Source: Dehalococcoidia bacterium (GTDB lineage: Bacteria; Chloroflexota; Dehalococcoidia; UBA2979). Taken from it: a DNA stretch of 64,000 bases. The position numbers were made by a program, and so were the translations under genes. Of this stretch, positions 47,675 to 63,268 are shown piece by piece. Under the pieces are notes generated by a model that had not been told where the DNA came from, made no database searches, and was given only the letters and a program-made list of their open reading frames with translations. The stretch covers positions 1,088,001-1,152,000 of the forward strand of contig OZ244720.1 in the NCBI GenBank assembly GCA_965219085.1, written 5' to 3'. Positions within the stretch are counted from its first letter, which is position 1; each line of letters starts with the position of its first letter.

Positions 47675-48457
47675 TCAGCGGCCGCGGCGGCGCTGGCGCT
47701 GGCCGTACGAGCGGATCGCGCGCAGGAAGTCGATGCGGCGGAACGCCGGCCAGTACGCATCGCAGAAGTAGTACTCGCTGAACGCGCTCTGCCACAGCAT
47801 GAACCCCGACAGCCGCAGCTCCCCCGACGTCCGGATCACGAGGTCCGGATCCGGGATGTCCGGCGCGTACAGGTAGCGTCCGAGCTCGTCAGCGTCGAGG
47901 GCGCGCGCGATGTCCGCGAGCGAGTCGCCGCGCTCGGCGCGGTCGTCCATCATCCGCCGCACCGCGTCGACGATCTCGTCGCGGCCGCCGTAGCCGACGG
48001 CGACGACCAGGTCGCCGTCGCCGTTCCCGGCCGTCGAGCGCTCGACGCGCTCGATCGCCTCGACGGTCGAAGTCGGCAGCAGGTCGCGGCGGCCGACGGC
48101 GCGGATGCGCCGCGGCAGCGCGGCGTGGCGCTGCTGCTCGGCGAGCGCCTCGACGCGCGTCTCGACAATCTCGTAGATGGCGTCGAGCTCGGCGGCGGGG
48201 CGCTGGAAGTTATCGGTCGACAGCACCCAGATCGTGACGACGGGGATGCCGAGTTCGTCGCACCAGGTGATGAGGCGTTCGATGTTGTCCGCGCCGTCGC
48301 GGTGGCCCGCGCCGACGTTCGCGAGGCCCGCGGTGCGCGCGAAGCGGCGGTTGCCGTCCGGGAGCACGCCGACGTGGTGGGGGATCGCGCCGCGGCGCAC
48401 CTCCGCCTCCAGCCGCCCCTCGTAGAAGCGGTAGACGAGCCGGCGCAGCAAGTCCAC
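47675..48457 (-). CDS. cis-prenyltransferase (UppS family, short-chain Z-isoprenyl diphosphate synthase-like)
   Basis: PHHVGVLPDGNRR, LSTDNFQR, YGGRDEI, DPDLVIRTSGELRLSGFMLWQSA. Confidence 0.93.
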   Translation of the reverse strand: MDLLRRLVYRFYEGRLEAEVRRGAIPHHVGVLPDGNRRFARTAGLANVGAGHRDGADNIERLITWCDELGIPVVTIWVLSTDNFQRPAAELDAIYEIVETRVEALAEQQRHAALPRRIRAVGRRDLLPTSTVEAIERVERSTAGNGDGDLVVAVGYGGRDEIVDAVRRMMDDRAERGDSLADIARALDADELGRYLYAPDIPDPDLVIRTSGELRLSGFMLWQSAFSEYYFCDAYWPAFRRIDFLRAIRSYGQRQRRRGR

Positions 48458-48487: not shown

Positions 48488-49396
48488 CTACGCGCGCTCC
48501 GCCCGCACGATGAAGCGATCGCGGTACGACTTCGTCGCGACGTCGAACTCGCCGCCGCAGGTGATGAGCGTGATGCTGTCGACCGGCACGTCGCCGCTGA
48601 GGACCGGGAGCCACTCGGCATCGGGGCCGTCCGCCTCGATCTGGCGGGTCCACGTGACCGTGTACTGCAGGACGTTGCCGCCGACCTCCACCTCGATCAC
48701 GTCGCCGGGGGAGAGCAGGCGCAGGCTGAAGAAGACGCCCTGGCCGCGGTAGTTCGCCTCGGCCCACGGGATCGTGTGGTTGTAATCGACGTGGCCGGAG
48801 AACACGGCGTTCTTGCCGCCGCCCGGCACGCCGCCGAGGCCGTCCCACTCCGAGAAGTCGTACCACACGACGTCGCCGGGGCCCGTCGGGTTGGGCATCT
48901 TCGCGCCCACGTAGCGCTGCCCCACCGGCGCGTCGACGCCGAGCACCGGGATGCGCAGCCGCCCGAGCGTCGCGTCCGGCGCCTCGCCGAACAGCCGATG
49001 CAACTCGTCCAGGCTGAACACCGTCGGCGCCCCCGCGGGTTGCGCGGGCGCGGCGACGGCATCGTCGCCGTCGTCGGGCTCGGGCGTCGGCGTGGGGGTG
49101 GGCGTCGGCGTGGCGGTCGGCGTGGGCGTCGCCGCCGGGGGTGGCGTCGCCACGGGCGGCGACGGTGTCGCGGTCGCCGAGGCGGCGACGGCGGGCGGCT
49201 GCGCCTCGGCGGCCGGCGCCACGGACGTGATCACCACGTCCGGGGGGTCGTCGTCGCCGCCTGTGAGGACGAACGTCGCCGCGATCAGGATGCCGGCCAG
49301 CACGCCGGCGACAACGCCGATCGCGGCCCAGCGCGCGAGCGGCGACCTGCTGGATGAGAACAGCGTGTCGAGGAAGCGCGGGCGTTTCGAGGTCAT
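48488..49396 (-). CDS. Class F sortase
   Basis: N-terminal TM, Pro/Thr linker, LRIPVLGVDAPV, FSGHVD, ITLITCGG, YRDRFIVRA (His-Cys-Arg triad). Confidence 0.9.
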   Translation of the reverse strand: MTSKRPRFLDTLFSSSRSPLARWAAIGVVAGVLAGILIAATFVLTGGDDDPPDVVITSVAPAAEAQPPAVAASATATPSPPVATPPPAATPTPTATPTPTPTPTPEPDDGDDAVAAPAQPAGAPTVFSLDELHRLFGEAPDATLGRLRIPVLGVDAPVGQRYVGAKMPNPTGPGDVVWYDFSEWDGLGGVPGGGKNAVFSGHVDYNHTIPWAEANYRGQGVFFSLRLLSPGDVIEVEVGGNVLQYTVTWTRQIEADGPDAEWLPVLSGDVPVDSITLITCGGEFDVATKSYRDRFIVRAERA

Positions 49397-49608
49397 GCGG
49401 GGAGTCCTTCGGTCTCGACCCGGCTGCGCGCGGTCACGCCGCCGGTTCGACTCCCACCACTCGTGACATATCGTTCACGATGCGGCGCGTGCTTGCAACA
49501 CCCATCGTCGCGCCGAACGTACGCTTATCACGATTGTTTGGCTGTAATCCAACCATTGACCCGCTACACTGGCAGCGCACCCGCCCCCACCGACCGAGGG
49601 GAGCAGCG

Positions 49609-49890
49609 ATGGCCTTCGACACCGAGCGCGCAGCCCGCCGGCTCACGGACGCCGGCTTGGACGAACGTGCCGCGAACGGCGTGGCGGACGTTGTGGGCTC
49701 CGCTACCGACGGACTCGCCACCGAGGCGAGCCTCGAGTCCGGCTTGCACGCGCTCGAGACGAGCTTGCTGGAAGTCAAGTCCAGCATCGCGGCGCTCGAG
49801 GCGCGCATCTACCGCGCGCTGTGGCTGCAGGGCATGGGCATCCTCGCCGGCACCGCCGCGATCGTCACCATCATCAACGTGCTCAACTGA
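49609..49890 (+). CDS. DUF1640/CCDC90-like coiled-coil membrane-anchored protein (array B1)
   Basis: MAFDTERAARRLTDAG head, LATEASL neck, C-terminal TM. Confidence 0.85.
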   Translation: MAFDTERAARRLTDAGLDERAANGVADVVGSATDGLATEASLESGLHALETSLLEVKSSIAALEARIYRALWLQGMGILAGTAAIVTIINVLN

Positions 49891-49923
49891 CGCACCCGCC
49901 CCCACCGACCGAGGGGAGCAGCG

Positions 49924-50238
49924 ATGGCCTTCGACACCGAGCGCGCAGCCCGCCGGCTCGCTGACGCCGGCTTGGACGAACGCGCCGCCAACGGCGTCGC
50001 CGACGTGGTGGCCAGCGCCACCGACGGACTCGCCACCGAGGCGAGCCTCGAGTCCGGCTTGCACGCGCTCGAGACGAGCTTGCTGGAAGTCAAGTCCAGC
50101 ATCGCGGCGCTCGAGGGCCGCATCGACGCCAGCATCGCGAAGCTTGAGGCGCGCTTCGCTCGCGCGCTGTGGCTGCAGGGCATGGGCATCCTCGCCGGCA
50201 CCGCCGCGATCGTCACCATCATCAACGTCCTCGACTGA
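49924..50238 (+). CDS. DUF1640/CCDC90-like protein (array B2)
   Basis: As B1 plus one 11-aa stalk unit. Confidence 0.85.
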   Translation: MAFDTERAARRLADAGLDERAANGVADVVASATDGLATEASLESGLHALETSLLEVKSSIAALEGRIDASIAKLEARFARALWLQGMGILAGTAAIVTIINVLD

Positions 50239-50270
50239 CGCACCCGCCCCCACGAGCGAGGGGAGCAGCG

Positions 50271-50552
50271 ATGGCCTTCGACACCGAGCGCGCAGCCCGC
50301 CGGCTCGCTGACGCCGGCTTGGACGAACGCGCCGCCAACGGCGTGGCGGACGTTGTGGGCTCCGCTACCGACGGACTCGCCACCGAGGCGAGCCTCGAGT
50401 CCGGCTTGCACGCGCTCGAGACGAGCTTGCTGGAAGTCAAGTCCAGCATCGCGGCGCTCGAGGCGCGCATCTACCGCGCGCTGTGGCTGCAGGGCATGGG
50501 CATCCTCGCCGGCACCGCCGCGATCGTCACCATCATCAACGTCCTCGACTGA
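50271..50552 (+). CDS. DUF1640/CCDC90-like protein (array B3)
   Basis: Nearly identical to B1. Confidence 0.85.
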   Translation: MAFDTERAARRLADAGLDERAANGVADVVGSATDGLATEASLESGLHALETSLLEVKSSIAALEARIYRALWLQGMGILAGTAAIVTIINVLD

Positions 50553-50584
50553 CGCACCCGCCCCCACGAGCGAGGGGAGCAGCG

Positions 50585-51070
50585 ATGGCCTTCGACACCG
50601 AGCGCGCAGCCCGCCGGCTCACGGACGCCGGCATGGACGAACGCGCCGCCAACGGCGTCGCCGACGTGGTGGCCAGCGCTACCGACGGACTCGCGACCGA
50701 GGCGAGCCTCCAATCCGGCCTGCACGCGCTCGAGACGAGCTTGCTGGAAGTCAGGGCCAGCATCGCCGCGCTCGAAGGCCGCATCGACGCCAGCATCGCG
50801 AAGCTTGAGGGCCGTATCGACGCCAGCATCGCCGCGCTCGAGGGCCGCATCGACGCCAGCATCGCCACGCTCGAGGGCCGTATCGACGCCAGCATCGCCG
50901 CGCTTGAGGGCCGCATCGACGCCAGCATCGCCACGCTCGAGGGCCGTATCGAGGCCAACATCGCGAAGCTAGAGGCGCGCATGATCAAGTGGACCGTCGG
51001 CGCAATCCTCGCCGGAATGAGCGCATCGGCCGCCATCGCCGCGGCCATCGTCCAGCTCATCGGCGGGTGA
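50585..51070 (+). CDS. DUF1640/CCDC90-like protein (array B4, long stalk)
   Basis: Six SIAxLEGRI(D/E)A units (33-bp tandem repeat, about 50759-50956) and a different TM (MIKWTVG...). Confidence 0.85.
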   Translation: MAFDTERAARRLTDAGMDERAANGVADVVASATDGLATEASLQSGLHALETSLLEVRASIAALEGRIDASIAKLEGRIDASIAALEGRIDASIATLEGRIDASIAALEGRIDASIATLEGRIEANIAKLEARMIKWTVGAILAGMSASAAIAAAIVQLIGG

Positions 51071-51075
51071 GCACG

Positions 51076-51363
51076 ATGGCCTTCGACACCGAGCGCGCAG
51101 CCCGCCGGCTCACGGACGCCGGCATGGACGAACGCGCCGCCAACGGCGTCGCCGACGTGGTGCGCAGCGCCACCGACGGACTCGCGACCGAGGCGAGCCT
51201 ACTGGAACTCACGGCCAGCATCGCCGCGCTCGAGGGCCGTATCGAGGCCAACATCGCGAAGCTTGAGGCGCGCATGATCAAGTGGACCGTCGGCGCGATC
51301 CTCGCCGGCATGGGCGCGTCGGCCGCCATCGCCGCGGCCATCGCGCAGCTCGCCGGCGGGTGA
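51076..51363 (+). CDS. DUF1640/CCDC90-like protein (array B5)
   Basis: Same head, short stalk, MIKWTVG-type TM. Confidence 0.85.
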   Translation: MAFDTERAARRLTDAGMDERAANGVADVVRSATDGLATEASLLELTASIAALEGRIEANIAKLEARMIKWTVGAILAGMGASAAIAAAIAQLAGG

Positions 51364-51427
51364 CCGCGGACGCCGCCATGCGGGTCGGGATCGATGCAGC
51401 CTCCTCCCACCACGTCACACGGCACCC

Positions 51428-51512
51428 CGCGGGGTATCCCCGCGTGCAGCCAAACACGGGGTATCCCCGCGTGAAAGCCACACACGGGGTATCCCCGCGT
51501 GAAAGCCACACA
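51428..51512 (+). repeat. Three tandem 27-28-bp units carrying the palindrome CGGGG-TAT-CCCCG
   Basis: C(G/A)CGGGGTATCCCCGCGTG..AGCCA three times; TAT centres at 51435, 51462 and 51490. Confidence 0.92.
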
Positions 51513-51516
51513 AGGA

Positions 51517-51541
51517 GAGGGCCCCCACATGGGGGGCCCTC
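51517..51541. terminator. Hairpin between convergent transcription units
   Basis: GAGGGCCCCC-ACATG-GGGGGCCCTC, a 10-bp stem. Confidence 0.55.
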
Positions 51542-51591
51542 CCGCGATCAGCGTCCGAGGGGGCGCTAACGCCCCCGCGTGGCGCCGAAGG

Positions 51592-52203
51592 TTAGTCGAT
51601 GCGGCCCGTCACCGTGCGCGCACCCGCGACGCCGGCAGCAGCCAGCGCGCCGAGCGCGAGGACGAGGAACATCGAGGCCGAACCGGACTCGGTCGCGAGG
51701 CCGGCGTTGCCGTCATCCGGCGGCTCCGGCGTCATGCCGTTCTTGTCGTCGTCCTCGGGCATCGCTGGCGTTGCCTCTGGCGTCGCCTCGGGCATCGCTG
51801 GCGTTGCCTCAGGTGTCGCCTCAGGCGTCTCCACCGGAGGAGGCGGCGCGATGGTCAGCGCGATGACCTGGGCGTCGGACGCGGCCCACGTGGCCGTCTG
51901 CTCGGCGGCCTGGCCGTTGACCTGGAAGGTCACGGTCGCGCCGTCGACGGCGCCGCCGCCACAGTCCTCCTCGTCGACCCAGATGGCCCACTCGCCGGCG
52001 TTGTCGACCTCGGTGGAGTCGCAGACGACGCCGCCGATCAGCGCGGTGATGGTGCCGCCCGCCTCCTGGCCGCCACCGTAGTAGATGGCCTGGGTCGGGC
52101 CCTGCGCGAGCGCGGAGTGCGCACCGAACGCGAGCGGCCCGAGCAGCAGCGCGAGGAGCGCCGCCACGAAGGCGAGCCGCGCGGGTCCCTTCGTCATGTT
52201 CAT
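51592..52203 (-). CDS. Secreted protein with a C-terminal sorting-signal-like motif (candidate sortase substrate)
   Basis: Signal peptide, Cys-paired beta domain, EATP linker, PEPPDDGNAGL followed by a hydrophobic helix and RTVTGR tail. Confidence 0.75.
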   Translation of the reverse strand: MNMTKGPARLAFVAALLALLLGPLAFGAHSALAQGPTQAIYYGGGQEAGGTITALIGGVVCDSTEVDNAGEWAIWVDEEDCGGGAVDGATVTFQVNGQAAEQTATWAASDAQVIALTIAPPPPVETPEATPEATPAMPEATPEATPAMPEDDDKNGMTPEPPDDGNAGLATESGSASMFLVLALGALAAAGVAGARTVTGRID

Positions 52204-52361
52204 TCAGTCTCTCCTTGCCGGGCTCATCGCTTCCGGGTCCGCCACCCGGGAGCGCCCTTTGGGCTTGACGTTTCGGATGGGAGAGCGGGCCCCGGACCGG
52301 TCAGACCGGTACCGCGAGCCCGCTGCTCCTCTCCTGTTCAAGGCCGAGGCGTCGTGACGCC

Positions 52362-53378
52362 CTAGCCCTCCATGCCGTTGTCGCCCATGGAGTCGTCCAT
52401 GCCGTCGTCGCCCATGGAGTCATCCATGCCGTCGTCGCCCATGGAGTCTTCCATGCCGTCGTCGCCCATGGAGTCTTCCATGCCGTCGTCGCCCATGGAG
52501 TCTTCCATGCCGTCCATGCCGTAGTTGCAGTCGCTCACGATGACCGCTTCAGGGCCATCGAAGCCGTCGCCGTACGCGCTCATGAACGGGGCGTTGACGA
52601 TGCCGAACTCGGGGTTCGGGACGAACGGCAGGTAGCCCTCGCCGTCCGGCTCGTTGACCCAGATGGTCGAGCTACCGGGGCACACGGCCAGGGCCGCGGC
52701 CTCGAGCTGCTCCACCGAGCCACCGCTGAAGATCGCCAGGCCCTGCGAACCGCTCAGCGACGGAGGCGCGGGCGGAGGCGCGGGCGTCGCTTCGGGCGTT
52801 GCCTCAGGCGTTGCTTCAGGCGTTGCCTCAGGCGTCGCTTCGGGCGTTGCCTCAGGCGTTGCCTCAGGCGTTGCCTCAGGCGTCGCTTCGGGCGTTGCCT
52901 CAGGCGTTGCCTCAGGCGTCGCTTCGGGCGTTGCCTCAGGCGTCGCTTCGGGCGTTGCCTCGGGCGTCGCCTCAGGCGGAGGCGCAGCGGCGACCGTCAG
53001 CGCGATGCCGTGCAACGGGTCGGGCGGCAGGTAGCCGGCCGTCCAGTCCAGGGTCTCAGCAGCGGGGTCGCCGTTGATGGTGAACGTGATGGTCGCGCCT
53101 TCCACGGCGCCACCGTCACAGTCGGCCGGGTGGATCGTAAAGGCCCACTGGCCGTTTGCGGCGGCAGTCATCGTGCCGCACTCCACGTCGCCGATCGAGG
53201 CGGCGATTACGTCACCCTCGGCGACAACGCCTCCGGCTTCGGAGTCGCCGTAGACGTTGGCCGGCGGCGGGGTCACCTGGGCGACCACGGAGCCGGCGTT
53301 GAATGCGAGCGGCACCAGGATGAGCGCGAACAGCGCGGCGACGAACCCGAGAGAGGTCAGTCCCTTCGCATTGCTCAT
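52362..53378 (-). CDS. Secreted surface protein with (EATP)16 linker, GGSV domain and Met/Asp-rich tail
   Basis: N-terminal domain paralogous to 51592-52203 (DCxGGAVxGATxTF); same AAGGAGAGACTGAATG leader. Confidence 0.8.
   Translation of the reverse strand: MSNAKGLTSLGFVAALFALILVPLAFNAGSVVAQVTPPPANVYGDSEAGGVVAEGDVIAASIGDVECGTMTAAANGQWAFTIHPADCDGGAVEGATITFTINGDPAAETLDWTAGYLPPDPLHGIALTVAAAPPPEATPEATPEATPEATPEATPEATPEATPEATPEATPEATPEATPEATPEATPEATPEATPEATPAPPPAPPSLSGSQGLAIFSGGSVEQLEAAALAVCPGSSTIWVNEPDGEGYLPFVPNPEFGIVNAPFMSAYGDGFDGPEAVIVSDCNYGMDGMEDSMGDDGMEDSMGDDGMEDSMGDDGMDDSMGDDGMDDSMGDNGMEG
52372..52510 (-). repeat. 27-bp coding tandem repeat x5, M(E/D)DSMGD(D/N)G
   Basis: CATGCCGTCGTCGCCCATGGAGTC.TC units are directly visible. 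Confidence 0.9.
52783..52974 (-). repeat. 12-bp coding tandem repeat x16 (EATP)
   Basis: GGCGT(C/T)GC(C/T)TC(A/G) over 192 bp. Confidence 0.93.
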
Positions 53379-53481
53379 TCAGTCTCTCCTTCTTGAGGGG
53401 ATTGCGTTTCGGAGCGGCCCCCGCGCCCCGGCCGAAACCAGGGCGCGGGGGGCGCGTATTTCAACCAGGCGCTAATCCCCC

Positions 53482-55416
53482 CTAGCCGCCACAGCCGCCG
53501 ACGAGCAGCGGCTCGTTGGCCGGGACGCCATCCGAGAACAGCGCGTTGAACGGGGCGTTGACCACCTCGACCATCGTGCCCGGGATGAAGGACACGTAGT
53601 TGCCCTGGTAGTCGGTCGCGTACGCCCTGACACCGGCGCCGCAAGCGTCGGTTAGTGCCGTGGCGAGCTCGTCGACCGAGCCGCCCGTGAAGGTCACCAG
53701 GGTGAAACCCTGGGCCGCGGGCTGCTTGCTCAGGCTCGGGGCCGCCGGAGGCGGCACAACCACCTCAACCGGCTCAGAGCCAGTGTTCAGCTCGAGGACG
53801 TGCTGGACGCGCGCGTCACCCTTGCCTGCACGGATCCGGAAGACCGCCGTGCCCTCGCTGAGCGGGGCCGTGTAGGTGAACTTCCCAATACCGTTGGTGG
53901 TCGTGACGGAACCGTCGGTGATGCCCTCAATGAGGCCATCGCCCTGGACCTTCAGGACCTCAACGGTCGTCTCGCCGACAAGGACGCCCTCGTCGTCGCG
54001 GACCGTGATGATGACCTCGTTGTCGCTCAGCGGCACAAGGTACGAACCAGTGGCCGGGCTGGTCTCGAGGGACGACGGCGCACCGGCGACCTCGATCTCA
54101 ACCGAAGCCTCAAGGTCGCCCAGCACGAAGTTAATCGTGTGCACGCCACGGGCCGATGCCTCGTTGTCAGCCGTTCCCGCGACATCCGGGGTGGCCGTCA
54201 CCTCGACGACACACTGGCCGTCGTCGTTCGTGCCGGTCGACGCGAATACGCCCACGACTGGGTCAGGAGTCTGGTCAGGAATGGCCACGACCTCGGTCAC
54301 AGGACCACAAGCCGGGATGTCGCCCTTCTCGATCTCGCCCTGGGTCTTCTTGTCCTTGTTGACGTTGTAGGCGCCGTCCTCGTCCACAGCCGTGGTGACG
54401 AGGTTAGAGTCATCCTCCGGGCCTACGACTTCTTCGTCACCCGCCTCCGGCTGCACACCCTTGACCGGGTTGTCCGCACCGTCGGTGACGGTCAGGACCA
54501 CGAAGACCGATCCGCCGACCTCGATCGAGTCCTGCTCGGCCTCGGCCACGAGGTTCTTCGCATCGCCGAACAGGGTGACCTCGAGCGTCTGGGCGTCGAG
54601 GGTCCCGTGGGTCACCGTGATGGTCGCAGTGCCCTCGCGGTTACCACCGGTCAGCGTGACAACGGCGTTACCGTCGGCACCGGTGTCCCCGGTGAAGTTG
54701 CTCGTGCTCGTCCAGACCTGGCACCACTGCACGTTCTGAGCGGCCGCGATGTTGGTCGGGTTCACGCCCGACGCCGGGCAGTTCAGCGTGCCGAGCGTGG
54801 TGATGAACGTGATGCGCTCATCGTTCATACCATCCTTGGTCTTCTGGTTGTTCGTGACGGTCGCACGAATCTGCGTGGAGCCACCAGCAGCACTGCCGTC
54901 AGCATTGATCGTCGTTGACGCTGCCTTCACCGCCAGCCTGGCCGGCTTCGGCTCCGTCGTGACCGTGATGACCACGGTCGTACTGGTCTCGGTAGTGGGC
55001 ACCGCCAAAGTGTCGGTGAGGACGATGGTGTACCTCAAGATGATGAACCCGTCGGCCGAGTCCTCATCGACGTTCAGCTTAACCTGAACGGAGCCATCAA
55101 TGTCTGCATTGTCCCCGTCGACGCCAGTGTCACAACTACCGTCGTCGCTACAGGCGAGCGTCTGGTCGCCGCCCGATGCGAAGCTACCGGTCGACGTGCT
55201 GTTCTCCCCGTCGATCGTGAACCGTACGATCTCCGCATTGGCAACAGTAATGACCGCTGTGTCGCCTGGCTCGACCTTCGCCGTGTTGGTGCCCCCCACT
55301 ATGACGTCCTTGGCCTCGACGGTTGTCGGGGAGGACGTGATCAGCACAGCGAACGCGACCGCGAATGCGGCGGCGATCACGAGTGCGGATGCGCCTAGCT
55401 TTCGTACGTAACTCAA
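53482..55416 (-). CDS. Secreted acidic Thr/Val/Asp/Gly-rich Ig-like repeat protein (S-layer-like) with a C-terminal GGSV domain
   Basis: TTG start after a purine-rich RBS; signal peptide; invasin/Big-1-like strands (ITFITTLGTL, GTATITVT, TVTDGADNPV); Lys-richer and lower GC than neighbours; about 500-bp upstream gap. The S-layer role is inferred. Confidence 0.72.
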   Translation of the reverse strand: MSYVRKLGASALVIAAAFAVAFAVLITSSPTTVEAKDVIVGGTNTAKVEPGDTAVITVANAEIVRFTIDGENSTSTGSFASGGDQTLACSDDGSCDTGVDGDNADIDGSVQVKLNVDEDSADGFIILRYTIVLTDTLAVPTTETSTTVVITVTTEPKPARLAVKAASTTINADGSAAGGSTQIRATVTNNQKTKDGMNDERITFITTLGTLNCPASGVNPTNIAAAQNVQWCQVWTSTSNFTGDTGADGNAVVTLTGGNREGTATITVTHGTLDAQTLEVTLFGDAKNLVAEAEQDSIEVGGSVFVVLTVTDGADNPVKGVQPEAGDEEVVGPEDDSNLVTTAVDEDGAYNVNKDKKTQGEIEKGDIPACGPVTEVVAIPDQTPDPVVGVFASTGTNDDGQCVVEVTATPDVAGTADNEASARGVHTINFVLGDLEASVEIEVAGAPSSLETSPATGSYLVPLSDNEVIITVRDDEGVLVGETTVEVLKVQGDGLIEGITDGSVTTTNGIGKFTYTAPLSEGTAVFRIRAGKGDARVQHVLELNTGSEPVEVVVPPPAAPSLSKQPAAQGFTLVTFTGGSVDELATALTDACGAGVRAYATDYQGNYVSFIPGTMVEVVNAPFNALFSDGVPANEPLLVGGCGG

Positions 55417-55662
55417 AATGTTCTCTCTTCCTTCGAGTTACTTCGTTATCTGTGTTCCGTCGCGTCGCGCTGGTCGATCGCCCTCCTCATATCGGGGCTC
55501 CCGTTGCGAGGGTCTGAACTGCGGGGCTTGTGCCGCCGCTCGAGCTGGACGCCGCAAGCATCCCGCCTGTCATCCCGTTCGCTGGAAGCCGGTCTCCTGT
55601 TCTCGCGCCTGGCTTGCCGCCGCGCAGCGCACAACACGCCACGACCGGGCAGCCCCCCTTCA

Positions 55663-55755
55663 TGCGGGGATACCCCGCAAGGGCCGGCACATGGGGAGTA
55701 ACGCGCGGGAGCGGCCTCGGGTTAATGCAGGTCAGCAATGCGGGGATACCCCGCA
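55663..55755 (-). promoter_or_regulatory. Two TGCGGGG-ATA-CCCCGCA palindromes flanking an ECF-type promoter candidate
   Basis: Palindromes at 55663-55679 and 55739-55755; between them, minus-strand TTAACCCGA-N10-GCGCGTT (55725-55700). Confidence 0.65.
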
Positions 55756-55943
55756 GGGAGCGGCATGTGCGCACACCCCGCCCCCACCCGTTGGCCCTCG
55801 CTGCGTGGAGATGCCCGTGGGCGCCTCGTATCCCCCGGCGTCGGGGCACGCGTTCTCTCCACGTGCAGTGATAGCGCACGCAGCCGCAAGCGTCGACCCG
55901 CGGGGTATGTTCGCCGCCACCCGGCGAGCGCCCGCCCGTCCCC

Positions 55944-57179
55944 CTACTGCCCCGTCGACGCCTCGCCGGCCAGCACGCACACCAGGTCATCGTTCGCCAA
56001 CCCTGCGTACGCCTCGCACACGTAGCCGTCGCCGTCGCCGTCGAACTCCAGCGGCACGCGGTAGTCCGGGAACCCGCCCCCGTCGCTGAACGACCGCGGC
56101 GAGATGTAGCGCGCCGCCTCCCGGCACGACCCGTACGCCAGCGCCCGCATCGTCGCCTGCTCCCGCACCGCCCACGCCTCGAAGTCCGCGTAGAGCTGCT
56201 GGAGCGGGACGCCGAACGCCGCCTCGAACGCAGTGTGCAGCTCCGCGCCGTCACGGACGTCGTCGTAGAACGCCAGCCAGTCCTCGAACGCGCCGTACGA
56301 CTCGATCGCGTACAGCGCGGCCGCCCCCATCAGGTCCTGATGCGCCCGGCCCGCGCGGAAGTCCGTGGCCGGCTCGTGGAAGACCGCCGAGCGGTAGCGG
56401 TCGTTGCGCACGGTGGGGGGCTCCCCCCGCTGGTACCAGGTCCAGTAGTACTCGAACGTGGCCGCCCCCACCCAGCGCGCGCTGACGTGGTGGGGCTGCA
56501 CCGCGCGGATGAACCACTCCCGCGCGATCGCCGTCGCGTCCGTCCGGCACTCCGGCCCAACAAAGATGTGCGCCCCGCGCTGGAACGCGCACTCGCCCGG
56601 CAGCTCGTCGAGCGCCTCCCCGAACGCCTCCTGGTAGCGCACGAGCAGGCCCGCGGGCGTGTACGCGATGTTGATCGTGATCGGCCCCTCGTGGGTGAGG
56701 CCGAGGTTCGTGCGCGCGTACGTGATCACCCTGCGCATCTCCGTCGCGATCGCGCGTTGCTTCGCGCGGTCGTCCCACATCCCTCGCACGCTGCAGCACG
56801 TGGCGCGCCCTGTCAGCGCCTCGCCGGGCGGGAGCAGATGCGGCGTCGCGGGGGTCAGGGGCGTGAACGGCAGCGCTTCCACCCCGCCGACCTCGACCTC
56901 GACGGTGACGGGCACGGAGATGGTCACCGGGTCGCTGAACAGCAGGGTCGGGATGCCGGGGTACTGCTCGAGATCCACGCGGAAGTCGTGGGTGATCCAC
57001 TCGTGGCCTCCTGGCCCGAGCTGGCGCGTGCTCACGAAGGCCGACTGGGAGCGGAGGCTGACCCAGAACTCCAGCTCGACCTCGACGCTGGTCTCGACGG
57101 TGCGTGTGGCGGCGAAGGCGCTGAGCGCGCCCGCGGCGGCGAGCACGGCGAGGAGACCCACGATGGCGGCACTTTTCAT
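55944..57179 (-). CDS. Secreted protein with a C-terminal Excalibur-like Ca-binding motif
   Basis: Signal peptide; YGSCREAA...DYRVPLEFDGDGDGYVCE. Confidence 0.75.
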   Translation of the reverse strand: MKSAAIVGLLAVLAAAGALSAFAATRTVETSVEVELEFWVSLRSQSAFVSTRQLGPGGHEWITHDFRVDLEQYPGIPTLLFSDPVTISVPVTVEVEVGGVEALPFTPLTPATPHLLPPGEALTGRATCCSVRGMWDDRAKQRAIATEMRRVITYARTNLGLTHEGPITINIAYTPAGLLVRYQEAFGEALDELPGECAFQRGAHIFVGPECRTDATAIAREWFIRAVQPHHVSARWVGAATFEYYWTWYQRGEPPTVRNDRYRSAVFHEPATDFRAGRAHQDLMGAAALYAIESYGAFEDWLAFYDDVRDGAELHTAFEAAFGVPLQQLYADFEAWAVREQATMRALAYGSCREAARYISPRSFSDGGGFPDYRVPLEFDGDGDGYVCEAYAGLANDDLVCVLAGEASTGQ

Positions 57180-57281
57180 GACGGCGAGGATAGCGCGCGT
57201 GTAGGGATGGGTAGCAGGGTTGGGTTGCTACACAGTACAACGCGGGTGACGGAGGGCTACGTGAAGGAGCCTGGTTGAGGA

Positions 57282-57541
57282 CTAGTTGAGGACCTGCGCG
57301 ATGGCGGCGGCGATCGCGGCAGCGATGCCCATGCCGGTGAGGAGCGTGCCGACGGTCCAGCGCGTGAGGCGCGTCTCCATCTGGTGCATCTCTACTCGCA
57401 GGCGCTCCTCGGAGAGCCGCACCTCGTGGCGGAGCAACTCGAGGTCCCCTTTGGTGGCGAAGTCGCTCGGAGCTGCTTGGGCTGAGGTCATGCACTCCTC
57501 CCTGGGAGTTTGGCGGCGCGCAGCGTGTCGAATAGCGCCAC
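57282..57541 (-). pseudogene. DUF1640-like gene (array C3), frameshifted in the head region
   Basis: GTG at 57541 gives MALFDTLRAAK, then a 1-nt shift to TPREECMTSAQA...FATKGDL...RWTVG TM. A headless 69-aa product from ATG 57491 (GGAGGAG RBS) remains possible. Confidence 0.7.
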
Positions 57542-57546
57542 GGCGG

Positions 57547-57825
57547 CTAGCCCAGCGCGACGATGACGGTGGTGGCGAGTGCGATGACGGCCGTGAGGAA
57601 GGTGGCGGCGGCGCCGACGGCGAGGTAGATGCGGTTGAGCAGGCGCTGCTCCGCGAGCGCGAGGTCCGAGCGCAAGAGCGCAATCTCCCGGTCCAGGTCG
57701 TCCCTCGTCGCCAGGCTCGCGCCGAAGTCCTCGGCGAACGTGGTGACGAGCACCTCGGCCTGCTCGGCGGGAATACCCGCCGCCTGGAGTTGTTGTGAGG
57801 CGCGCAGCGTGTCGAGCATCGCCAT
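57547..57825 (-). CDS. DUF1640/CCDC90-like protein (array C2)
   Basis: MLDTLRASQQLQAAG...LATRDDL...NRIYLAVGAAATFL TM. Confidence 0.85.
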   Translation of the reverse strand: MAMLDTLRASQQLQAAGIPAEQAEVLVTTFAEDFGASLATRDDLDREIALLRSDLALAEQRLLNRIYLAVGAAATFLTAVIALATTVIVALG

Positions 57826-57830
57826 GGTGG

Positions 57831-58238
57831 CTAGTCCAGGGCGACGATGACGGTGGTGGCGAGGCCGATGACGGCCGTGAGGAAGGTGGCGGCGGCGCCG
57901 ACGGCGAGGTAGATGCGGTTCACGACGCGGTGCTCGGTCTGCGCGATCTCGCCGCGCAGGCGCTCCTCGGTCTGCGCGAGATCGCCGCGGACGGCAGCGA
58001 TCTCGCCGCGCAGGCGCTCCTCGGTCTGCGCGAGATCGCCGCGGACGGCAGCGATCTCGCCGCGCAGGCGCTCCTCGGTGCGCTCGAGGTCGGAGCGCAA
58101 GGCGGCAAGGTCGACCTTCGTTGCGACGCGCTCACCGACGTCTTCCGCGAAGGCGGTGACGATGGCGTCGGCCTTGGGGGCCTCGAAGCCGGCCTCCTGG
58201 AGTCGTTGCGACGCGCGCCGCGTGTCGAATAGCACCAT
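57831..58238 (-). CDS. DUF1640/CCDC90-like protein (array C1)
   Basis: FDTRRASQRLQEAGF...VATKVDL; 54-bp (18-aa) stalk repeat x2; same TM as C2. Confidence 0.88.
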   Translation of the reverse strand: MVLFDTRRASQRLQEAGFEAPKADAIVTAFAEDVGERVATKVDLAALRSDLERTEERLRGEIAAVRGDLAQTEERLRGEIAAVRGDLAQTEERLRGEIAQTEHRVVNRIYLAVGAAATFLTAVIGLATTVIVALD

Positions 58239-58524
58239 GGTGGCATGCTACGTCGCCACGCGCGGTTCTCGCTACCAACAAGACGGATTATTCGGATCCG
58301 GATATAGCGGGGCGCGGGCGAGGGATACGACCGGGCAACAACAAGGCCGGGCATACGCCCGGCCCCGATGCGCGTCGGTTCGCTGCTGGGACTGACGAGA
58401 CCCGTCGCGGGCAGTGTGCGGAGACGCGGCGGGGATGTCAAGTTGATTGCGATTGTTCGGTACAGCAGCACTCTCACCCACTCCGCCCGCACCCATCGCT
58501 CATCACGTCCGCCGTTACGTCGCG

Positions 58525-58549
58525 TTAACCCGATCGGCTGCGGCGCGTT
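58525..58549 (+). promoter_or_regulatory. ECF-type promoter candidate upstream of the sigma gene
   Basis: TTAACCCGA-N9-GCGCGTT, i.e. AAC-N16-CGT; matches the motif at 55700-55725. Confidence 0.5.
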
Positions 58550-58740
58550 TACCGGGGTGCGATGGGAGCGTGGCGGGTGAGCCGAATCAGGCGTGTCGAA
58601 CGGTCGCGCGGCAGCTATGAGCGCCGGGGCGCATCCCGGGGCGCATCCCGGGGCCCGGAGGGCCCGGGCGACCTCGGCAGCCCCGTACACGGGCAGTCCG
58701 TATACTGGTGCGCGGGCCCCGCGACGGCGGACCTCGTGCC

Positions 58741-58821
58741 CGCGAGGTATCCTCGCATAACCGGCCCCGCGAGGTATCCTCGCATACCCGGCCCCGCGAG
58801 GTGTCCTCGCATAACCGGCCC
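58741..58821 (+). repeat. Three tandem 27-bp units carrying the palindrome GCGAGG-TAT-CCTCGC
   Basis: CGCGAGGT(A/G)TCCTCGCATA(A/C)CCGGCCC three times, ending 2 nt before the sigma ATG. Confidence 0.92.
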
Positions 58822-58823
58822 AG

Positions 58824-59450
58824 ATGCCGTACGAGATGCCGAACCCTCCATCACACAGCCTCACACCGGACGAAGAGCGATCGCTGGTCGATCGCGCGCG
58901 CTCGGGCGACCAGGACGCCCTCGGCGCGCTCTACGACGCCTACGCGGACCGGCTGTATCGCTACTGCCTGACGCGCGTGGGCGACGAGACGGAGGCGGAG
59001 GACCTGGCCGAGGACGTCTTCCTGAAGGTGCTGGGCGCGATCGAGCGCTTCGAGTGGCGGCCCGGCGAGGACGGCCAGCGCATCCCGTTCGGGGCCTGGC
59101 TGTTCCGCATCGCCCGCAACGAGATCGCCTCGTACCGTCGTCGCGCGGCCTCGCGGCCGCAGCAGACGGAGCTGCCGGAGGTGCTGCACGACACGCGGCG
59201 CGGCCCGGCCGAGCTGGCGGAGACGAAGCTGACCATCGAGGAGGTGTTCCGGGCGGTGCGCGAGCTGCCCGACGCGCAGCGGGAGGTGATCCTGCTGCGC
59301 TTCGCCTCGGGCCTGACGGTGGCGGAGACCGCCGCCGCCCTGGGCAAGAAGGTACCGAACGTGAAGGTGTTGCAGCACAAGGGCGTCCAGCGCCTGCGCG
59401 CACTCTTCACCACCCCGCCGCCCCGCGGGGTATCCCCGCATCAAAGATGA
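58824..59450 (+). CDS. ECF sigma-70 factor
   Basis: LVDRARSGDQDALGALYDAY, AEDLAEDVFLK, FGAWLFRIARN, LPDAQREVILLRF...AETAAALGK. Confidence 0.93.
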   Translation: MPYEMPNPPSHSLTPDEERSLVDRARSGDQDALGALYDAYADRLYRYCLTRVGDETEAEDLAEDVFLKVLGAIERFEWRPGEDGQRIPFGAWLFRIARNEIASYRRRAASRPQQTELPEVLHDTRRGPAELAETKLTIEEVFRAVRELPDAQREVILLRFASGLTVAETAAALGKKVPNVKVLQHKGVQRLRALFTTPPPRGVSPHQR

Positions 59451-59480
59451 TCGCGGAGCGGGCGGGCGGACGGTGACGCC

Positions 59481-60686
59481 ATGACGAACATGCACGACGA
59501 ACCCTTCGACGACCTGCGCAGTGGCGATCTCAATGGCGACATGCCGGGCGAGATGCCCGGCGACGAGCTGCTGAGCGAGATCGACCTCGCCGACGCCGAG
59601 CGCTTCGCCGAGGTCATCGACCGCCTCGAAGCAGGCGGCGGGGTCGACCTCGACCCGCGCGAAGACCCGACGCTGGCCGCGCTGACCACGGTGGCCGCGC
59701 AGCTCCGCGACAACGCCCGCGACGCCACCTCGACGCCGCGCTTCGAGTCGTACCGCGCGCGGTCGCGCGACTACCTGCTGCACCGCATCGCGCGCGAGCG
59801 CGAGGTGCTGGCGGCCTCGGCGCGCCCGCAGCCTGAGCGCGAGGAGCCCTCGGGGCTGGGCGGCATCCCGTTCCTGCGCTGGAACGTGCTCTCGCCGATC
59901 GCCAGCGCGGCGGCGGCCGCGGTCGCGGTGCTCGCGTTCGTCGCGTTCACCGGCAGCGACACGCCGGCGCCGGTCGCGCCCGAGCAGGCCGCGGTCGTCG
60001 ACACCCCGGCCGTGGCGCCGGTCGCCGACGACGCGGACGAGCAGGACGCGGTCGAGCCGGTGACGCCTCAGCCCGACCCGGTGCGGGTCGCCACCCTCAT
60101 CCTCTCGAGCCGGCCGTCGAACGAAGAGATCCTCGACCGGTTCGCCGCGGCGACGAGCGTGCGCTACGCGGCCATCGCGGACGACGCCGTGGTCGCGGCA
60201 GTGGACGACACCGCCGCGGATGACGTCGTGGACGAAGCGCCGGCGGCCGAGGCCGCCCCGGCGCCCGCGACGCCGCCTGTCACGGTGGCCGTGGCGCCCC
60301 GGCCCGTGCCGGTGGCCGCGGCGACCAGCGAGGTGTTCAGCGTGTCAACGCAGCGCGCGACGCCTCGGACGCTCCCGGACCAGCTCGACTACATCGACAC
60401 GCTGCTGGGCGAGTTGACGGTGATGGTGGAAGGGCAGGAACGGGTGCCCGCGCAGCTGCTGCGCGAGATCACCGAGTCGATCGCCGCGGTGGCGTACCGC
60501 ATCGAGTCGCGCCCGGACGAGGTGACGCACGCGCAGGTGGTCGCCTACATCCACGCAGCGGCGGACGGCCGGTTCCTCCTCGCCGCGGCGGTGGCGGACG
60601 AGGCGGACGAGGCGGCGCTGAACGCCGCGCGCCGCGTGGCGCAGGACGGCGTGGTGGTGGCGGGCTGGTACTTCAAGTACCGCTAG
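59481..60686 (+). CDS. Putative transmembrane anti-sigma factor
   Basis: Directly follows the ECF gene; helical cytoplasmic N-terminus, single TM (AAAVAVLAFVAF), Ala/Pro linker and helical C-domain. Confidence 0.65.
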   Translation: MTNMHDEPFDDLRSGDLNGDMPGEMPGDELLSEIDLADAERFAEVIDRLEAGGGVDLDPREDPTLAALTTVAAQLRDNARDATSTPRFESYRARSRDYLLHRIAREREVLAASARPQPEREEPSGLGGIPFLRWNVLSPIASAAAAAVAVLAFVAFTGSDTPAPVAPEQAAVVDTPAVAPVADDADEQDAVEPVTPQPDPVRVATLILSSRPSNEEILDRFAAATSVRYAAIADDAVVAAVDDTAADDVVDEAPAAEAAPAPATPPVTVAVAPRPVPVAAATSEVFSVSTQRATPRTLPDQLDYIDTLLGELTVMVEGQERVPAQLLREITESIAAVAYRIESRPDEVTHAQVVAYIHAAADGRFLLAAAVADEADEAALNAARRVAQDGVVVAGWYFKYR

Positions 60687-61482: not shown

Positions 61483-62138
61483 GGGCTAGTCCTCGAAGAA
61501 CTGCACGTGGCATACCACGATGGACGTGTACGCGCAGACGAGAAAGCACGCCAAGCCCCACAGTGCGGTGAAGAGGACGACCCACCGGCAGACGTTCCAG
61601 CACGTCAGGATTCGCACCGTCTGGCAGATCTCCAGCTCGCCTCGGGCGGCGGCTCCCGAACCGGCCGCATCAGGCGGCTGCGGTGTGCCAGACCACACGC
61701 CATCGGTGACCGATACGTCATGGCCTTTCCCCTTCATCCGAAGTGTCCCTGCGAACGGGCGCAGTGGTTGGCCGGACGCATCGTACGTCGTTGCGATGGT
61801 CGAGCGGACCGTCACCGTGATGTCGGCGCCCTCCACGAAATTGGTGAGCGCCGGGTCACTGAACGAGTTGTCACCGTCCAGCACGCCACTGGCGGTAACC
61901 GACCCCTGCTTCACGACGAGGGTGTAGCCCTCGTAGTCGCCAAGGCGTTCGTTCTGCTGCTCGAACAGCGTGATCACACCGTCCCGCAGGTTGATCACGA
62001 AGCGACTGACCTCGCTGTCGGCGAACTCCCATTCATCACCCACATCGAACCTGAGTTCGTTGACCTGACCCCTTGAAACGGGACCACCGTTGATGAGAGT
62101 CCTTTGGCCCATGAAAGTGGGCAGAGGAGGACATCACG

Positions 62139-62417
62139 GTGAAACGACGCAGGCACACGCCCGAGCAGATCGTGCGTAAGCTGCGGGAGGTGGAGCGGCT
62201 GCTCGGCGAAGGGCAGACGATCGCCGAGGCGGCGAAGCAGATCGAGATCTCGGAGCAGACCTACCACCGCTGGCGCAACCAGTACGGCGCGATGAAGGCC
62301 GACGACGCCAAACGGCTGCGCGAGCTGGAGCGCGAGAACGTCCGGCTGAAGCGGATCGTCGCCGACAAGGAACTCGAGATCGACGCGCTCAAGGAGATCG
62401 CCCGGGGAAACTGGTAA
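62139..62417 (+). CDS. IS3 transposase OrfA
   Basis: RHTPEQIVRKLRE...ISEQTYHRWRNQYG...RLRELERENVRLK; slippery GGGAAAC just before the stop. Confidence 0.93.
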   Translation: MKRRRHTPEQIVRKLREVERLLGEGQTIAEAAKQIEISEQTYHRWRNQYGAMKADDAKRLRELERENVRLKRIVADKELEIDALKEIARGNW

Positions 62418-63268
62418 GCCCGTCGCGCCGGCGCGAGGCAGTCTGCATGTTGCAGGACCGCCTCGAGTTGTCGGAACGGCGGGCATGCCGGGTCACCGGC
62501 CAGCGCCGCTCCACACAGCGCCGCCTCCCGGTGCGCGGCCGCGGCGACGACGCGCTGCGCGCGGAACTCCACGCCTTCTCGCGTGGCCACCCCCGCTGGG
62601 GCTACCGCCGGGCCTGGGCGACCTTACGCGAGGAGGGCTGGGGCGTGAATCGCAAGCGGGTGCAACGGCTCTGGCGCGAGGAGGGGCTGCGCGTCCCGGT
62701 GAAACGACGCAAGCGTCAGCGTCTGGGGGACTCGGCTCAGCCCGCCAGGCGGCTGCGTGCCGAGCGGCCGAACCACGTCTGGGCGCTGGACTTCCAGTTC
62801 GACCAGACCGCCGACGGGCGGGTCCTGAAGCTGCTCAACGTCGTCGACGAGCACACGCGGGAGGCGCTGGCTATCGTGGCCGCCAGGAGCATCAACGCCG
62901 ACGCCACGGCCTCAACGCTCGAGGGGATCGTCGCCCGGCGCGGGACGGCGCCTGGGTACATCCGCTGCGACAACGGTCCAGAGCTCACGGCCAACGCGCT
63001 GCGCGACTGGTGCCGGTTCTCCGGCACGGGCAGCAGCTACATCGAGCCCGGTGCGCCGTGGGAGAACCCGTACGTGGAGTCGTTCAACGGCCGGCTGCGC
63101 GACGAGTTCCTGGCCGTCGAGCAGTTCGACAGCCTGCTCGAGGCGCGGGTGCTCGAGGACTGGCGGATCGAGTACAACACGAAGCGCCCGCATAGCAGCC
63201 TGGGCTGGCTCGCCCCGGCTGCCTACGCCGAGCGCTGGGAGGCTCAGCAACACGCTGGACTCTCATAA
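62414..63268 (+). CDS. IS3 transposase OrfB (DDE), expressed by -1 frameshift
   Basis: WGYRR, NRKRVQRLWREEGL, WALDF, CDNGPE, PWENPYVESFNGRLRDE, RPHSSLG. Confidence 0.93.
   Translation, partial: VSPSRRREAVCMLQDRLELSERRACRVTGQRRSTQRRLPVRGRGDDALRAELHAFSRGHPRWGYRRAWATLREEGWGVNRKRVQRLWREEGLRVPVKRRKRQRLGDSAQPARRLRAERPNHVWALDFQFDQTADGRVLKLLNVVDEHTREALAIVAARSINADATASTLEGIVARRGTAPGYIRCDNGPELTANALRDWCRFSGTGSSYIEPGAPWENPYVESFNGRLRDEFLAVEQFDSLLEARVLEDWRIEYNTKRPHSSLGWLAPAAYAERWEAQQHAGLS

Follow-up and report, generated by a model that had tools for sequence, protein, structure and literature searches.

We analyzed a 64,000-nt stretch of DNA (hereafter the window) that corresponds to positions 1088001-1152000 of contig OZ244720.1 (G000:C1) from a Dehalococcoidia bacterium whose genome is a single contig of 3.31 Mb with a GC content of 70%. 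Sequence comparisons suggest, with moderate confidence, that a sortase gene, an operon for secreted proteins, and the gene of an extracytoplasmic function (ECF) sigma factor with its membrane-protein neighbor together make up a sortase-linked module for the cell surface, under ECF sigma control, in a Dehalococcoidia family. The core of this module across four genera comprises the ECF sigma factor and a putative membrane anti-sigma factor, a secreted protein with immunoglobulin (Ig)-like domains and a tail domain, and a protein of about 200 aa that carries the motif G-N/S-A-G-L/F; in two of these genera the sortase gene belongs to the same operon. The gene map, which was built from a listing of open reading frames (ORFs), codon-position GC, and Pfam/NCBIfam family scans, agrees with the inventory given in an earlier note on this DNA, namely a sortase, coiled-coil arrays, a secreted-protein operon, and an ECF sigma factor with a neighboring membrane protein. 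The main features are located in the window as follows:

48488-49396, minus strand: sortase (Pfam Sortase match)
47675-48457, minus strand: uppS, undecaprenyl-diphosphate synthase (Pfam Prenyltransf, 234 bits)
51592-52203, minus strand: p203 (203 aa, secreted), with GNAGL encoded at 51697-51711
52362-53378, minus strand: p338 (338 aa, secreted), in an operon with p644 and p203
53482-55416, minus strand: p644 (644 aa, secreted), with the tail domain encoded at 53485-53754
55700-55725, minus strand: predicted operon promoter, TTAACCCGA-N10-GCGCGTT, 309 nt upstream of the TTG start of p644
58525-58549, plus strand: predicted sigma-gene promoter, TTAACCCGA-N9-GCGCGTT, 299 nt upstream of the start codon
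58824-59450, plus strand: ECF sigma factor (Sigma70_r2 and r4_2)
59481-60686, plus strand: putative membrane anti-sigma factor (401 aa), named from its position only

The sigma gene and the p644-p338-p203 operon share a promoter pattern. The AAC..CGT motif that had been proposed to connect them carries little information when taken alone, since AAC-N15-18-CGT is matched about 0.68 times per kb per strand; the proposal holds for the longer pattern TTAACC-N14-15-GCGTT, of which the short motif is a part and which is present at both genes. The genome contains the extended form TTAACCCGA-N9/10-GCGCGTT exactly twice, once ahead of the sigma gene and once ahead of p644; both sites point along transcription, and their spacers and flanks are unrelated. 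In 22 of 25 genomes, TTAACC-N14/15-GCGTT precedes the sigma orthologue at a distance of 134-324 nt, with a spacer sequence that varies between them; the 22 include all 17 genus genomes with an orthologue (G000 among them), representatives of four further genera in the family, and one genome from a different family. The motif also occurs 241-341 nt upstream of the p644 homologue in 11 out of 12 genus genomes, as well as upstream of p644-like genes in three further genera (G020 of genus g3, G021 of g4, and G022 of g5). When the loose pattern was searched in 16 genus genomes, 27 of its 38 matches were found at the sigma or p644 gene classes. We also collected 78 loci around relatives of the sortase from public Chloroflexota metagenome-assembled genomes (MAGs), 66 of them with at least 1.5 kb of upstream sequence. 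These 78 loci (1.22 Mb) contain 24 matches to the promoter pattern, 17 of which lie no more than 7 kb upstream of the sortase on its own strand, whereas three control patterns gave 3, 1, and 3 matches. The candidate promoter of the sigma gene has the AAC-containing -35 and CGT-containing -10 elements of an autoregulated ECF promoter, and the placement of the predicted sites is the signature of an autoregulated ECF sigma factor with a very small regulon. This sigma factor very probably drives the p644 operon.

The sigma gene product matches the Pfam domains Sigma70_r2 (59.8 bits) and r4_2 (42.6 bits) and scores 90.6 bits with TIGR02937 (cut-off 42.9), which places it among the ECF (group 4) sigma factors. 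Its best NCBIfam model is that of the BldN family, TIGR02952, with 146.7 bits under a cut-off of 206.45, which leaves the protein outside the family proper. The 401-aa protein encoded next to it contains a conserved N-terminal region of about 75 aa, one hydrophobic segment (approximately residues 125-157, as judged by eye), and a conserved C-terminal region of about 80 aa. In relatives, and in 11 out of the 78 sortase loci, a gene of this type follows that of the sigma factor. Adjacency to the sigma gene and a single membrane helix are the features by which the protein qualifies as a putative anti-sigma factor. Between G018 and G000 it is 63% identical, compared with 89% for the sigma factor, and thus it diverges faster; RsbN-type anti-sigma factors are known to be divergent, according to PMC4255298. 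The label of an ECF/anti-sigma pair therefore stands for the ECF factor, whereas the anti-sigma half follows from position and is not accompanied by a recognized domain. In the Dehalococcoidia MAG contigs L105, L106, and L107, the sortase gene and the ECF/anti-sigma pair are immediate neighbors transcribed away from each other, and no p203-like gene was detected within the locus.

The linkage of the sortase, p644, and ECF genes that the earlier note had suggested was recovered in most genus genomes and, in the form of compact operons, in genera g3 and g4. In all 14 fetched genus loci the p644 gene is followed by a p203-type gene, in some cases with a p338-type gene in between. The sigma gene is located 2.7-16 kb from a p644 copy in 11 out of 14 judgeable genus genomes, the exceptions being G001, G014, and G006 with over 300 kb between the two, while the sortase gene lies 2-15 kb from a p644 copy, on the side opposite to the sigma gene, in 12 out of 15. 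The operon is relocated in G001 and G014, where the sortase and sigma genes are still 13-18 kb apart. Since synteny within a genus may be inherited, the arrangements in other genera weigh more. In G020 (g3), the anti-sigma and ECF genes are divergent from a compact one-strand row of genes whose products have 420 aa, 552 aa (tail domain), 197 aa (p203-like), and 187 aa (tail domain), with the sortase gene at the end. The row in G021 (g4), likewise divergent from the ECF gene, encodes proteins of 689 aa (tail domain), 175 aa (p203-like), and 223 aa and again closes with the sortase gene. The sortase is thus encoded by the last gene of the operon in both genera. In G022 (g5), the ECF/anti-sigma genes are divergent from p644-like and p203-like genes, and the sortase gene is found elsewhere. 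Genes of the p203-like type also adjoin sortase genes in G019, G003, and G039, the last of which belongs to another family.

Beyond these genera, an ORF that bears the candidate sorting signal ends within 1.5 kb upstream of the sortase gene, on the same strand, in 15 of the 66 loci with sufficient upstream sequence. Ten of these ORFs belong to the p203 family and five encode larger proteins, including four from Chloroflexia or Dehalococcoidia with [QS]PPxTGDAGL and one doubtful case. The occurrence of [QS]PPxTGDAGL beside distant sortases suggests that the signal goes with the sortase clade beyond the p203 family. In loci L133, L137, L141, and L152, from Chloroflexia and Dehalococcoidia MAGs, tandem pairs of genes for more distant sortases follow genes for 293-491-aa proteins that end in [QS]PPxTGDAGL and a helix. 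Taken together, the claim of a co-regulated surface module is partly supported, by the linkage of the sigma pair, the operon, and the sortase across genera and by the promoter shared between the sigma gene and the operon; a palindrome and the coiled-coil arrays, which the earlier note had counted as parts of it, drop out, as described below.

The p203 protein consists of a signal peptide, a beta-sandwich domain of about 90 aa with two invariant Cys residues, a hypervariable acidic and Pro-rich linker, and a C-terminal signal made up of G-N/S-A-G-L/F, 8-10 Ser/Gly residues, a hydrophobic helix, and an Arg-rich tail; in this genome the signal stretch reads PPDDGNAGLATES. In an alignment of 16 sequences from four genera (A1), G165, A167, and G168 are invariant, N166 and L169 are kept in at least 90% of sequences, and GNAGL is the best-conserved segment in the C-terminal half of the protein. 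Most relatives have [PA]PxTGNAGL, in which the core recalls LPXTG, except that Pro or Ala replaces Leu and NAGL is appended. The same alignment displays the general layout of LPXTG-type signals, in which the motif is followed by a hydrophobic helix and a basic tail at the very C-terminus. The LPXTG pentapeptide itself is not present, and the corresponding model TIGR01167 has no match in p203 and gives 7.9 bits for a relative (cut-off 15.9); the other CTERM models of NCBIfam likewise remained below their cut-offs on the p203 tail in Pfam/NCBIfam scans at loose thresholds. When 1.84 billion proteins were searched with a profile of the p203 family, 1693 representatives were retrieved at E<=0.001. 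Among the best 150 of these 1693, 38 combine GxAG[LFIVM] with a transmembrane (TM) helix, mostly as PxTGNAGL. Ten p203-family clusters that we checked by name carry only the name "hypothetical protein," and one of their members comes from a Dehalococcoidia MAG. Unrelated proteins of relatives end in the same signal, for example PKTGNAGL, PRTGNAGL, or PETGTAGL. The best VIA match to the fold of the p203 N-domain has a Z score of 7.3 (1nkg) and is tied with CnaB, pilin, and transthyretin-like folds and with SlaB; we assigned no family to this domain, because the fold is a common arrangement with many unrelated ties.

Several side observations concern p203-like sequences. One look-alike cluster in the ESM Atlas is automatically named "LPxTG domain-containing," which we treat as a lead only. 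A second candidate substrate is encoded at G000:C1:750348-751186 on the minus strand; it has a signal peptide, ends in NTGNAGL followed by a helix and RRRIA, and adjoins transposase-like ORFs. Its coding region is split over two overlapping frames (218 and 61 aa), which suggests a frameshift. In addition, a 174-aa paralogue of p203 (G000:C1:2829825-2830313, plus strand) possesses a C-terminal helix and basic tail without GNAGL.

The sortase matches Pfam PF04203 over residues 147-301 (54.4 bits, cut-off 26.6) and is composed of an N-terminal TM anchor, a Pro/Thr-rich linker, and the catalytic domain, with His202, Cys280 (in TLITC), and Arg298 invariant in an alignment of 10 sequences (A3). It is the single sortase of the genome according to tblastn and profile searches, and no match to the exosortase family was found in this genome, which is 92.7% complete. 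The remark that a sortase acceptor is not obvious in this organism did not survive a genome check for peptidoglycan genes, which revealed six Mur-ligase-domain matches, of which four share a dcw cluster (2.809-2.817 Mb) with FtsW and a penicillin-binding protein (PBP), and a separate RodA/PBP2 pair at 0.26 Mb. As peptidoglycan synthesis is encoded, an acceptor for the sortase is to be expected. The sortase-uppS gene pair recurs in 6 out of the 78 sortase loci, all from close relatives, and the genome has a second, 34% identical uppS paralogue; the pairing may tie the sortase to the supply of lipid carrier.

The largest product of the operon, p644, has a signal peptide, about five Ig-like beta-sandwich domains, and a compact C-terminal alpha/beta tail domain (approximately residues 555-644). 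Its AlphaFold2 model has a mean predicted local distance difference test (pLDDT) score of 79.3, and a Foldseek search with p644 returned generic Ig-like arrays only. The TTG start codon and the ribosome-binding site (RBS) are conserved among homologues. Full-length homologues were found in the genus only, at 32-57% identity and often in several copies, compared with 73-93% for the genus sigma factors; such divergence and multiplicity are as expected of an exposed, fast-evolving protein. The p338 protein contains a signal peptide, an N-domain of the p203 type, an (EATP)n linker, a tail domain, and acidic (DSMGDDGME)n repeats, and hence has its N-domain in common with p203 and its tail domain in common with p644. 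The C-termini of p644 and p338 lack a membrane helix. A tail-domain hidden Markov model (HMM), for which p644, p338, and the neighboring 1398-aa cadherin-like protein served as input, identified 36 proteins of this genome at E<=1.6e-11 in a search against 2,720 crude ORF calls. Most of the tail-domain proteins are giant adhesins of 1-8.5 thousand aa with two tail copies at the end. The tail domain obtained only scores below 0.9 against the ESM Atlas, and Pfam/NCBIfam searches with the p644 tail at loose thresholds gave nothing usable. We propose that p644, p338, and the other tail-domain proteins are probably held at the surface via this domain. Complex prediction for the p644 tail (residues 548-644) with the p203 N-domain (residues 35-126), with alignments as input, scored 0.29, 0.31, and 0.32, against a mark of 0.32 and 0.00-0.02 for the controls, values that we take neither as support for binding nor as evidence against it. 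A speculative extension, which we consider unlikely, is that the p203 stalk would be a wall-bound docking site for the tail domain in the manner of cohesin and dockerin, with p338 as an adaptor or chain extender, so that ECF control would decide the display of p644, p338, and all giant adhesins of the genome with this domain, which occurs in 36 proteins.

The proposed mechanism of the module can be outlined as follows. The membrane anti-sigma factor would hold the BldN-like ECF sigma factor until an envelope signal frees it, and the freed sigma factor would transcribe its own gene and the p644-p338-p203 operon from the TTAACC-N14/15-GCGTT promoters, with leaders of about 300 nt. All three operon products are predicted to be exported. 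The sole sortase would probably cleave the p203 signal and join p203 to peptidoglycan precursors, p203 thereby becoming a wall-anchored stalk, while the Ig-like array of p644 and the p338 protein, which have no anchor of their own, would be held at the surface by the tail domain. In this scheme we infer the binding between sigma and anti-sigma factors, the enzyme that processes the signal and its cut site, the partner of the tail domain, and the function of the surface structure.

A number of observations weigh against the module as proposed. The 401-aa protein has no Pfam or NCBIfam family match, even at loose thresholds. The p644 gene is located more than 90 kb from the sortase gene in 3 out of 15 genus genomes, and where the genes do lie together in the genus, the shared order may be simply inherited. 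The sortase gene of this genome is not part of the operon; uppS follows it 30 nt downstream on the same strand, and the promoter pattern search of the window and genome found no matching promoter for it. The reversed promoter pattern has 6 matches in this genome compared with 2 for the forward one, and thus the raw motif count means nothing, and it is position and conservation that count. The sortase has no match among PDB sequences at E<=0.01, and of the earlier label "class F sortase" we retain the sortase assignment and not the class, since the class F model NF033748, although the best of the sortase-class models, yields 56.3 bits compared with an NCBIfam cut-off of 166. The signal of p203 in this genome is PPDDGNAGL, with Asp at the position of the usual scissile Thr, and Asp or Val occupies this position in some other genus members in alignment A1; cleavage of p203 may therefore take place elsewhere in this organism, or not at all. 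As the Thr is not kept here, the invariant GNAGL rather than PxTG may be the recognized part. Weakly in favor of expression, RNA contigs from four libraries of one sponge metatranscriptome study, which differ from the window by 0-3 positions per approximately 200 nt, match stretches of p203 and p338 and both ends of p644, at the 5' end together with 195 nt of leader (to 55611). The leader coverage fits a long transcribed leader; the contigs show no transcription start, strand, or level, and gaps in their coverage are uninformative. Near-identical sequence is thus present in sponge metatranscriptome libraries.

Three other explanations of the locus were considered. In the first of them, p644 is an S-layer (major wall) protein, the operon builds the lattice, and p203 serves as its membrane or wall anchor. 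The secreted Ig-like string of p644, its long leader, strong conserved RBS, fast evolution, and several copies are what one would look for in such a protein, as are the RNA-library contigs that exist for the operon, the Foldseek matches to the S-layer structures 8c8m and 8opr (ranks 40 and 50), and the weak match of the p203 N-domain to the Sulfolobus anchor SlaB (Z 7.1). However, these fold matches are of a generic kind, on a par with many unrelated Ig arrays; ECF control points to expression that is induced and not constitutive; peptidoglycan synthesis is encoded; and with 36 tail-domain proteins p644 is one of many. We regard an S-layer as unlikely. The co-occurrence of three secreted proteins with the sortase in one operon in g3 and g4 also recalls a sortase-assembled pilus-like fiber with p644 as the tip, p338 as the shaft, and p203 as the wall-anchored base. 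The p203 N-domain resembles CnaB-type and pilin domains (Z 5.5-6.1), although at the level of a common arrangement only, and p338 has one domain in common with each neighbor. Nevertheless, a pilus calls for several signal-bearing pilins, whereas p203 alone has a sorting signal with helix and basic tail; moreover, the sortase is nearest to class F and not to class C, and no pilin-type motif turned up, although no search was aimed at one. We therefore hold a pilus to be very unlikely.

It is also conceivable that the locus is a loose neighborhood of envelope genes kept by descent, with no common function and with a sortase that serves other substrates. Within the genus the genes lie anywhere between 2 and 16 kb apart, G001, G014, and G006 do not keep the order, and the coiled-coil arrays, p411 (a further secreted protein, see below), and uppS are linked only in subsets of genomes. 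Against this, the same set of genes is compacted into one operon beside an ECF gene in two other genera, the promoter is common to several genera, and a signal-bearing gene is located directly upstream of related sortases in distant Chloroflexota. For the core of sigma factor, operon, and sortase this explanation is largely refuted, and overall we consider it quite unlikely. Thus, an ECF-controlled, sortase-linked surface module remains the interpretation that we prefer.

The nearest described system in its logic is, by analogy, the sigma-BldN/RsbN system of Streptomyces, which controls chaplins and rodlins, secreted sheath proteins, with the long chaplins anchored by class E sortases (Bibb et al. 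2012 and Elliot et al. 2003, as described in PMC4255298 and PMC8225981). In common with it, the ECF sigma factor described here has BldN as its best model and an adjacent, faster-diverging membrane protein as its putative anti-sigma factor, and the targets are secreted surface proteins of which one class is sortase-signaled and, by prediction, wall-anchored, while related ones have no signal. On the other hand, the sigma factor stays below the BldN family cut-off (146.7 vs. 206 bits), chaplins have no relationship to the surface proteins of this module, PxTGNAGL/GNAGL takes the place of LAXTG as the signal, the sortase is nearest to class F instead of class E, and aerial growth is not known in the host, a Dehalococcoidia bacterium. 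For class F sortases, two papers from 2021 and 2026 (PMC8225981, PMC13251363) describe a widespread group with a single characterized member, SrtF of Cutibacterium acnes, which acts on LPXTG; the physiological roles of the group are given there as unknown, and a quadruple class F mutant of one actinomycete had no phenotype. The sortase studied here resembles this class in its fold, best NCBIfam class model, His-Cys-Arg triad, N-terminal membrane anchor, and high-GC monoderm host, and departs from it in model score (56 vs. 166 bits) and in the lack of a PDB sequence match. Compared with the LPXTG of SrtF, the candidate signal has Pro or Ala for Leu, an added invariant NAGL, and a Thr that is not present in every genus member. 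It shares with LPXTG signals (TIGR01167) the succession of short motif, hydrophobic helix, and basic tail, the PxTG core in most relatives, and the location of its gene next to a sortase gene, and differs from them in the invariant GNAGL, which lies downstream of the usual cleavage site, and in the 8-10 Ser/Gly residues between motif and helix. A literature search found nothing on a Dehalococcoidia sortase, a PxTGNAGL signal, or a class F sortase linked with a sigma factor. In these terms, the conserved module would be a case of sortase anchoring under ECF control, in a new variant form.

The class-F-like sortase clade of Chloroflexota thereby gains a candidate substrate family (1693 representatives), a candidate signal, PxTGNAGL, and a dedicated regulator, all three of which are testable with peptides and reporter fusions without growing the organism. 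These uncultured Dehalococcoidia carry dozens of giant adhesins with no obvious anchor, and the module offers a first handle on their surface organization.

The remaining features at the locus are the following:

49609-51363, plus strand: tandem array of five coiled-coil genes with a C-terminal TM helix (93, 104, 93, 161, and 95 aa)
57282-58238, minus strand: three coiled-coil plus TM paralogues (65, 92, and 135 aa)
55944-57179, minus strand: p411 (411 aa, secreted), with an Excalibur-like DGDGDGYVCE motif below threshold
43328-47524, plus strand: cadherin/Big_9 surface protein of 1398 aa (Pfam Cadherin and Big_9), which ends in one tail domain (tail HMM E=2.5e-38)
51430-51497, plus strand: three tandem copies of CGGGGTATCCCCG, with further copies at 55665 and 55741 (span 55665-55753) and at 59426-59438
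58739-58821: three copies of CGAGGTATCCTCG, a variant of the palindrome, upstream of the sigma gene

The five-gene array represents real reading frames, as indicated by GC3 of 0.90-0.92 and GC2 of 0.50-0.56 on the plus strand, and its members have from zero to about seven 11-residue repeats. Among five of the eight coiled-coil genes that were scanned with PF07798 (CCDC90-like/DUF1640), the 135-aa member scores 39.2 bits (cut-off 33.5), two others score 20-23 bits, and two have no match to the family; relaxed thresholds in Pfam and NCBIfam yielded nothing of use for the coiled-coil genes. Eight of approximately 19 members of this coiled-coil family are encoded at the locus, and about ten are scattered in the genome. 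The arrays were proposed to belong to the linked module, which our comparison does not confirm: they are found beside it only inside the genus, in 7 out of 12 genomes, they occur in 6 of the 78 sortase loci, all from this genus, and they are absent from the module loci of the other genera examined. One coiled-coil gene is often divergent from the sortase gene within the genus. The pattern search of the window and the genome detected no ECF promoter at the arrays. The encoded proteins lack a signal peptide, and Arg precedes their only helix, which is C-terminal; the positive-inside rule would place the bulk of each protein on the cytoplasmic side, which argues against spacers of an external layer. 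The coiled-coil proteins thus probably face the cytoplasm, and we abandon the idea that they act as membrane spacers of a surface layer. The p411 gene is located beside the operon only in G018, G010, and one more close relative. Its product had been described as an Excalibur protein, a description that is justified at the level of the motif and not by family score, since the match to Pfam Excalibur PF05901 (E=0.021, 15.6 bits) is under the gathering cut-off of 22.

The palindrome CGGGGTATCCCCG occurs in 6 copies in the window, compared with 0.19 expected, and two exact copies bracket the operon promoter, while another falls within the final codons of the sigma ORF. No exact copy precedes the sigma gene, where the variant CGAGGTATCCTCG occurs three times instead. 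Across the 3.3-Mb genome we counted 72 exact copies at 34 places, mostly in tandem at a spacing of 25-30 nt, and relatives lack copies at the sites discussed here, with the exception of the closest relative, G018, near the operon. The palindrome is thus a genome-wide repeat with non-conserved sites, and we reject it both as an operator and as a cis-element shared by the operon and the sigma gene; CGGGGTATCCCCG is a lineage-specific repeat of the repetitive extragenic palindromic (REP)-like type. The REP-like arrays reach 8 units, and the unit contains a 13-nt GC-rich hairpin motif.

Four in-frame tandem repeats, two in coiled-coil genes and two in p338, look prone to length change. These are 33-nt units (11 residues) in a coiled-coil gene at 50756-50986, 54-nt units in a coiled-coil gene of the second array at 57943-58104, about 17 copies of the 12-nt EATP unit of p338 at 52733-53023, and the 27-nt DSMGDDGME units of p338 at 52364-52541. 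Near the module, two overlapping ORFs on the plus strand at 62055-63268 (92 and 273 aa) presumably resemble a two-ORF transposase. The first 17-25 residues of the neighboring ORF at 61486-62112 on the minus strand are found again at 9 further places in the genome, and this repeated start probably represents the end of an insertion sequence at 62055-63268.

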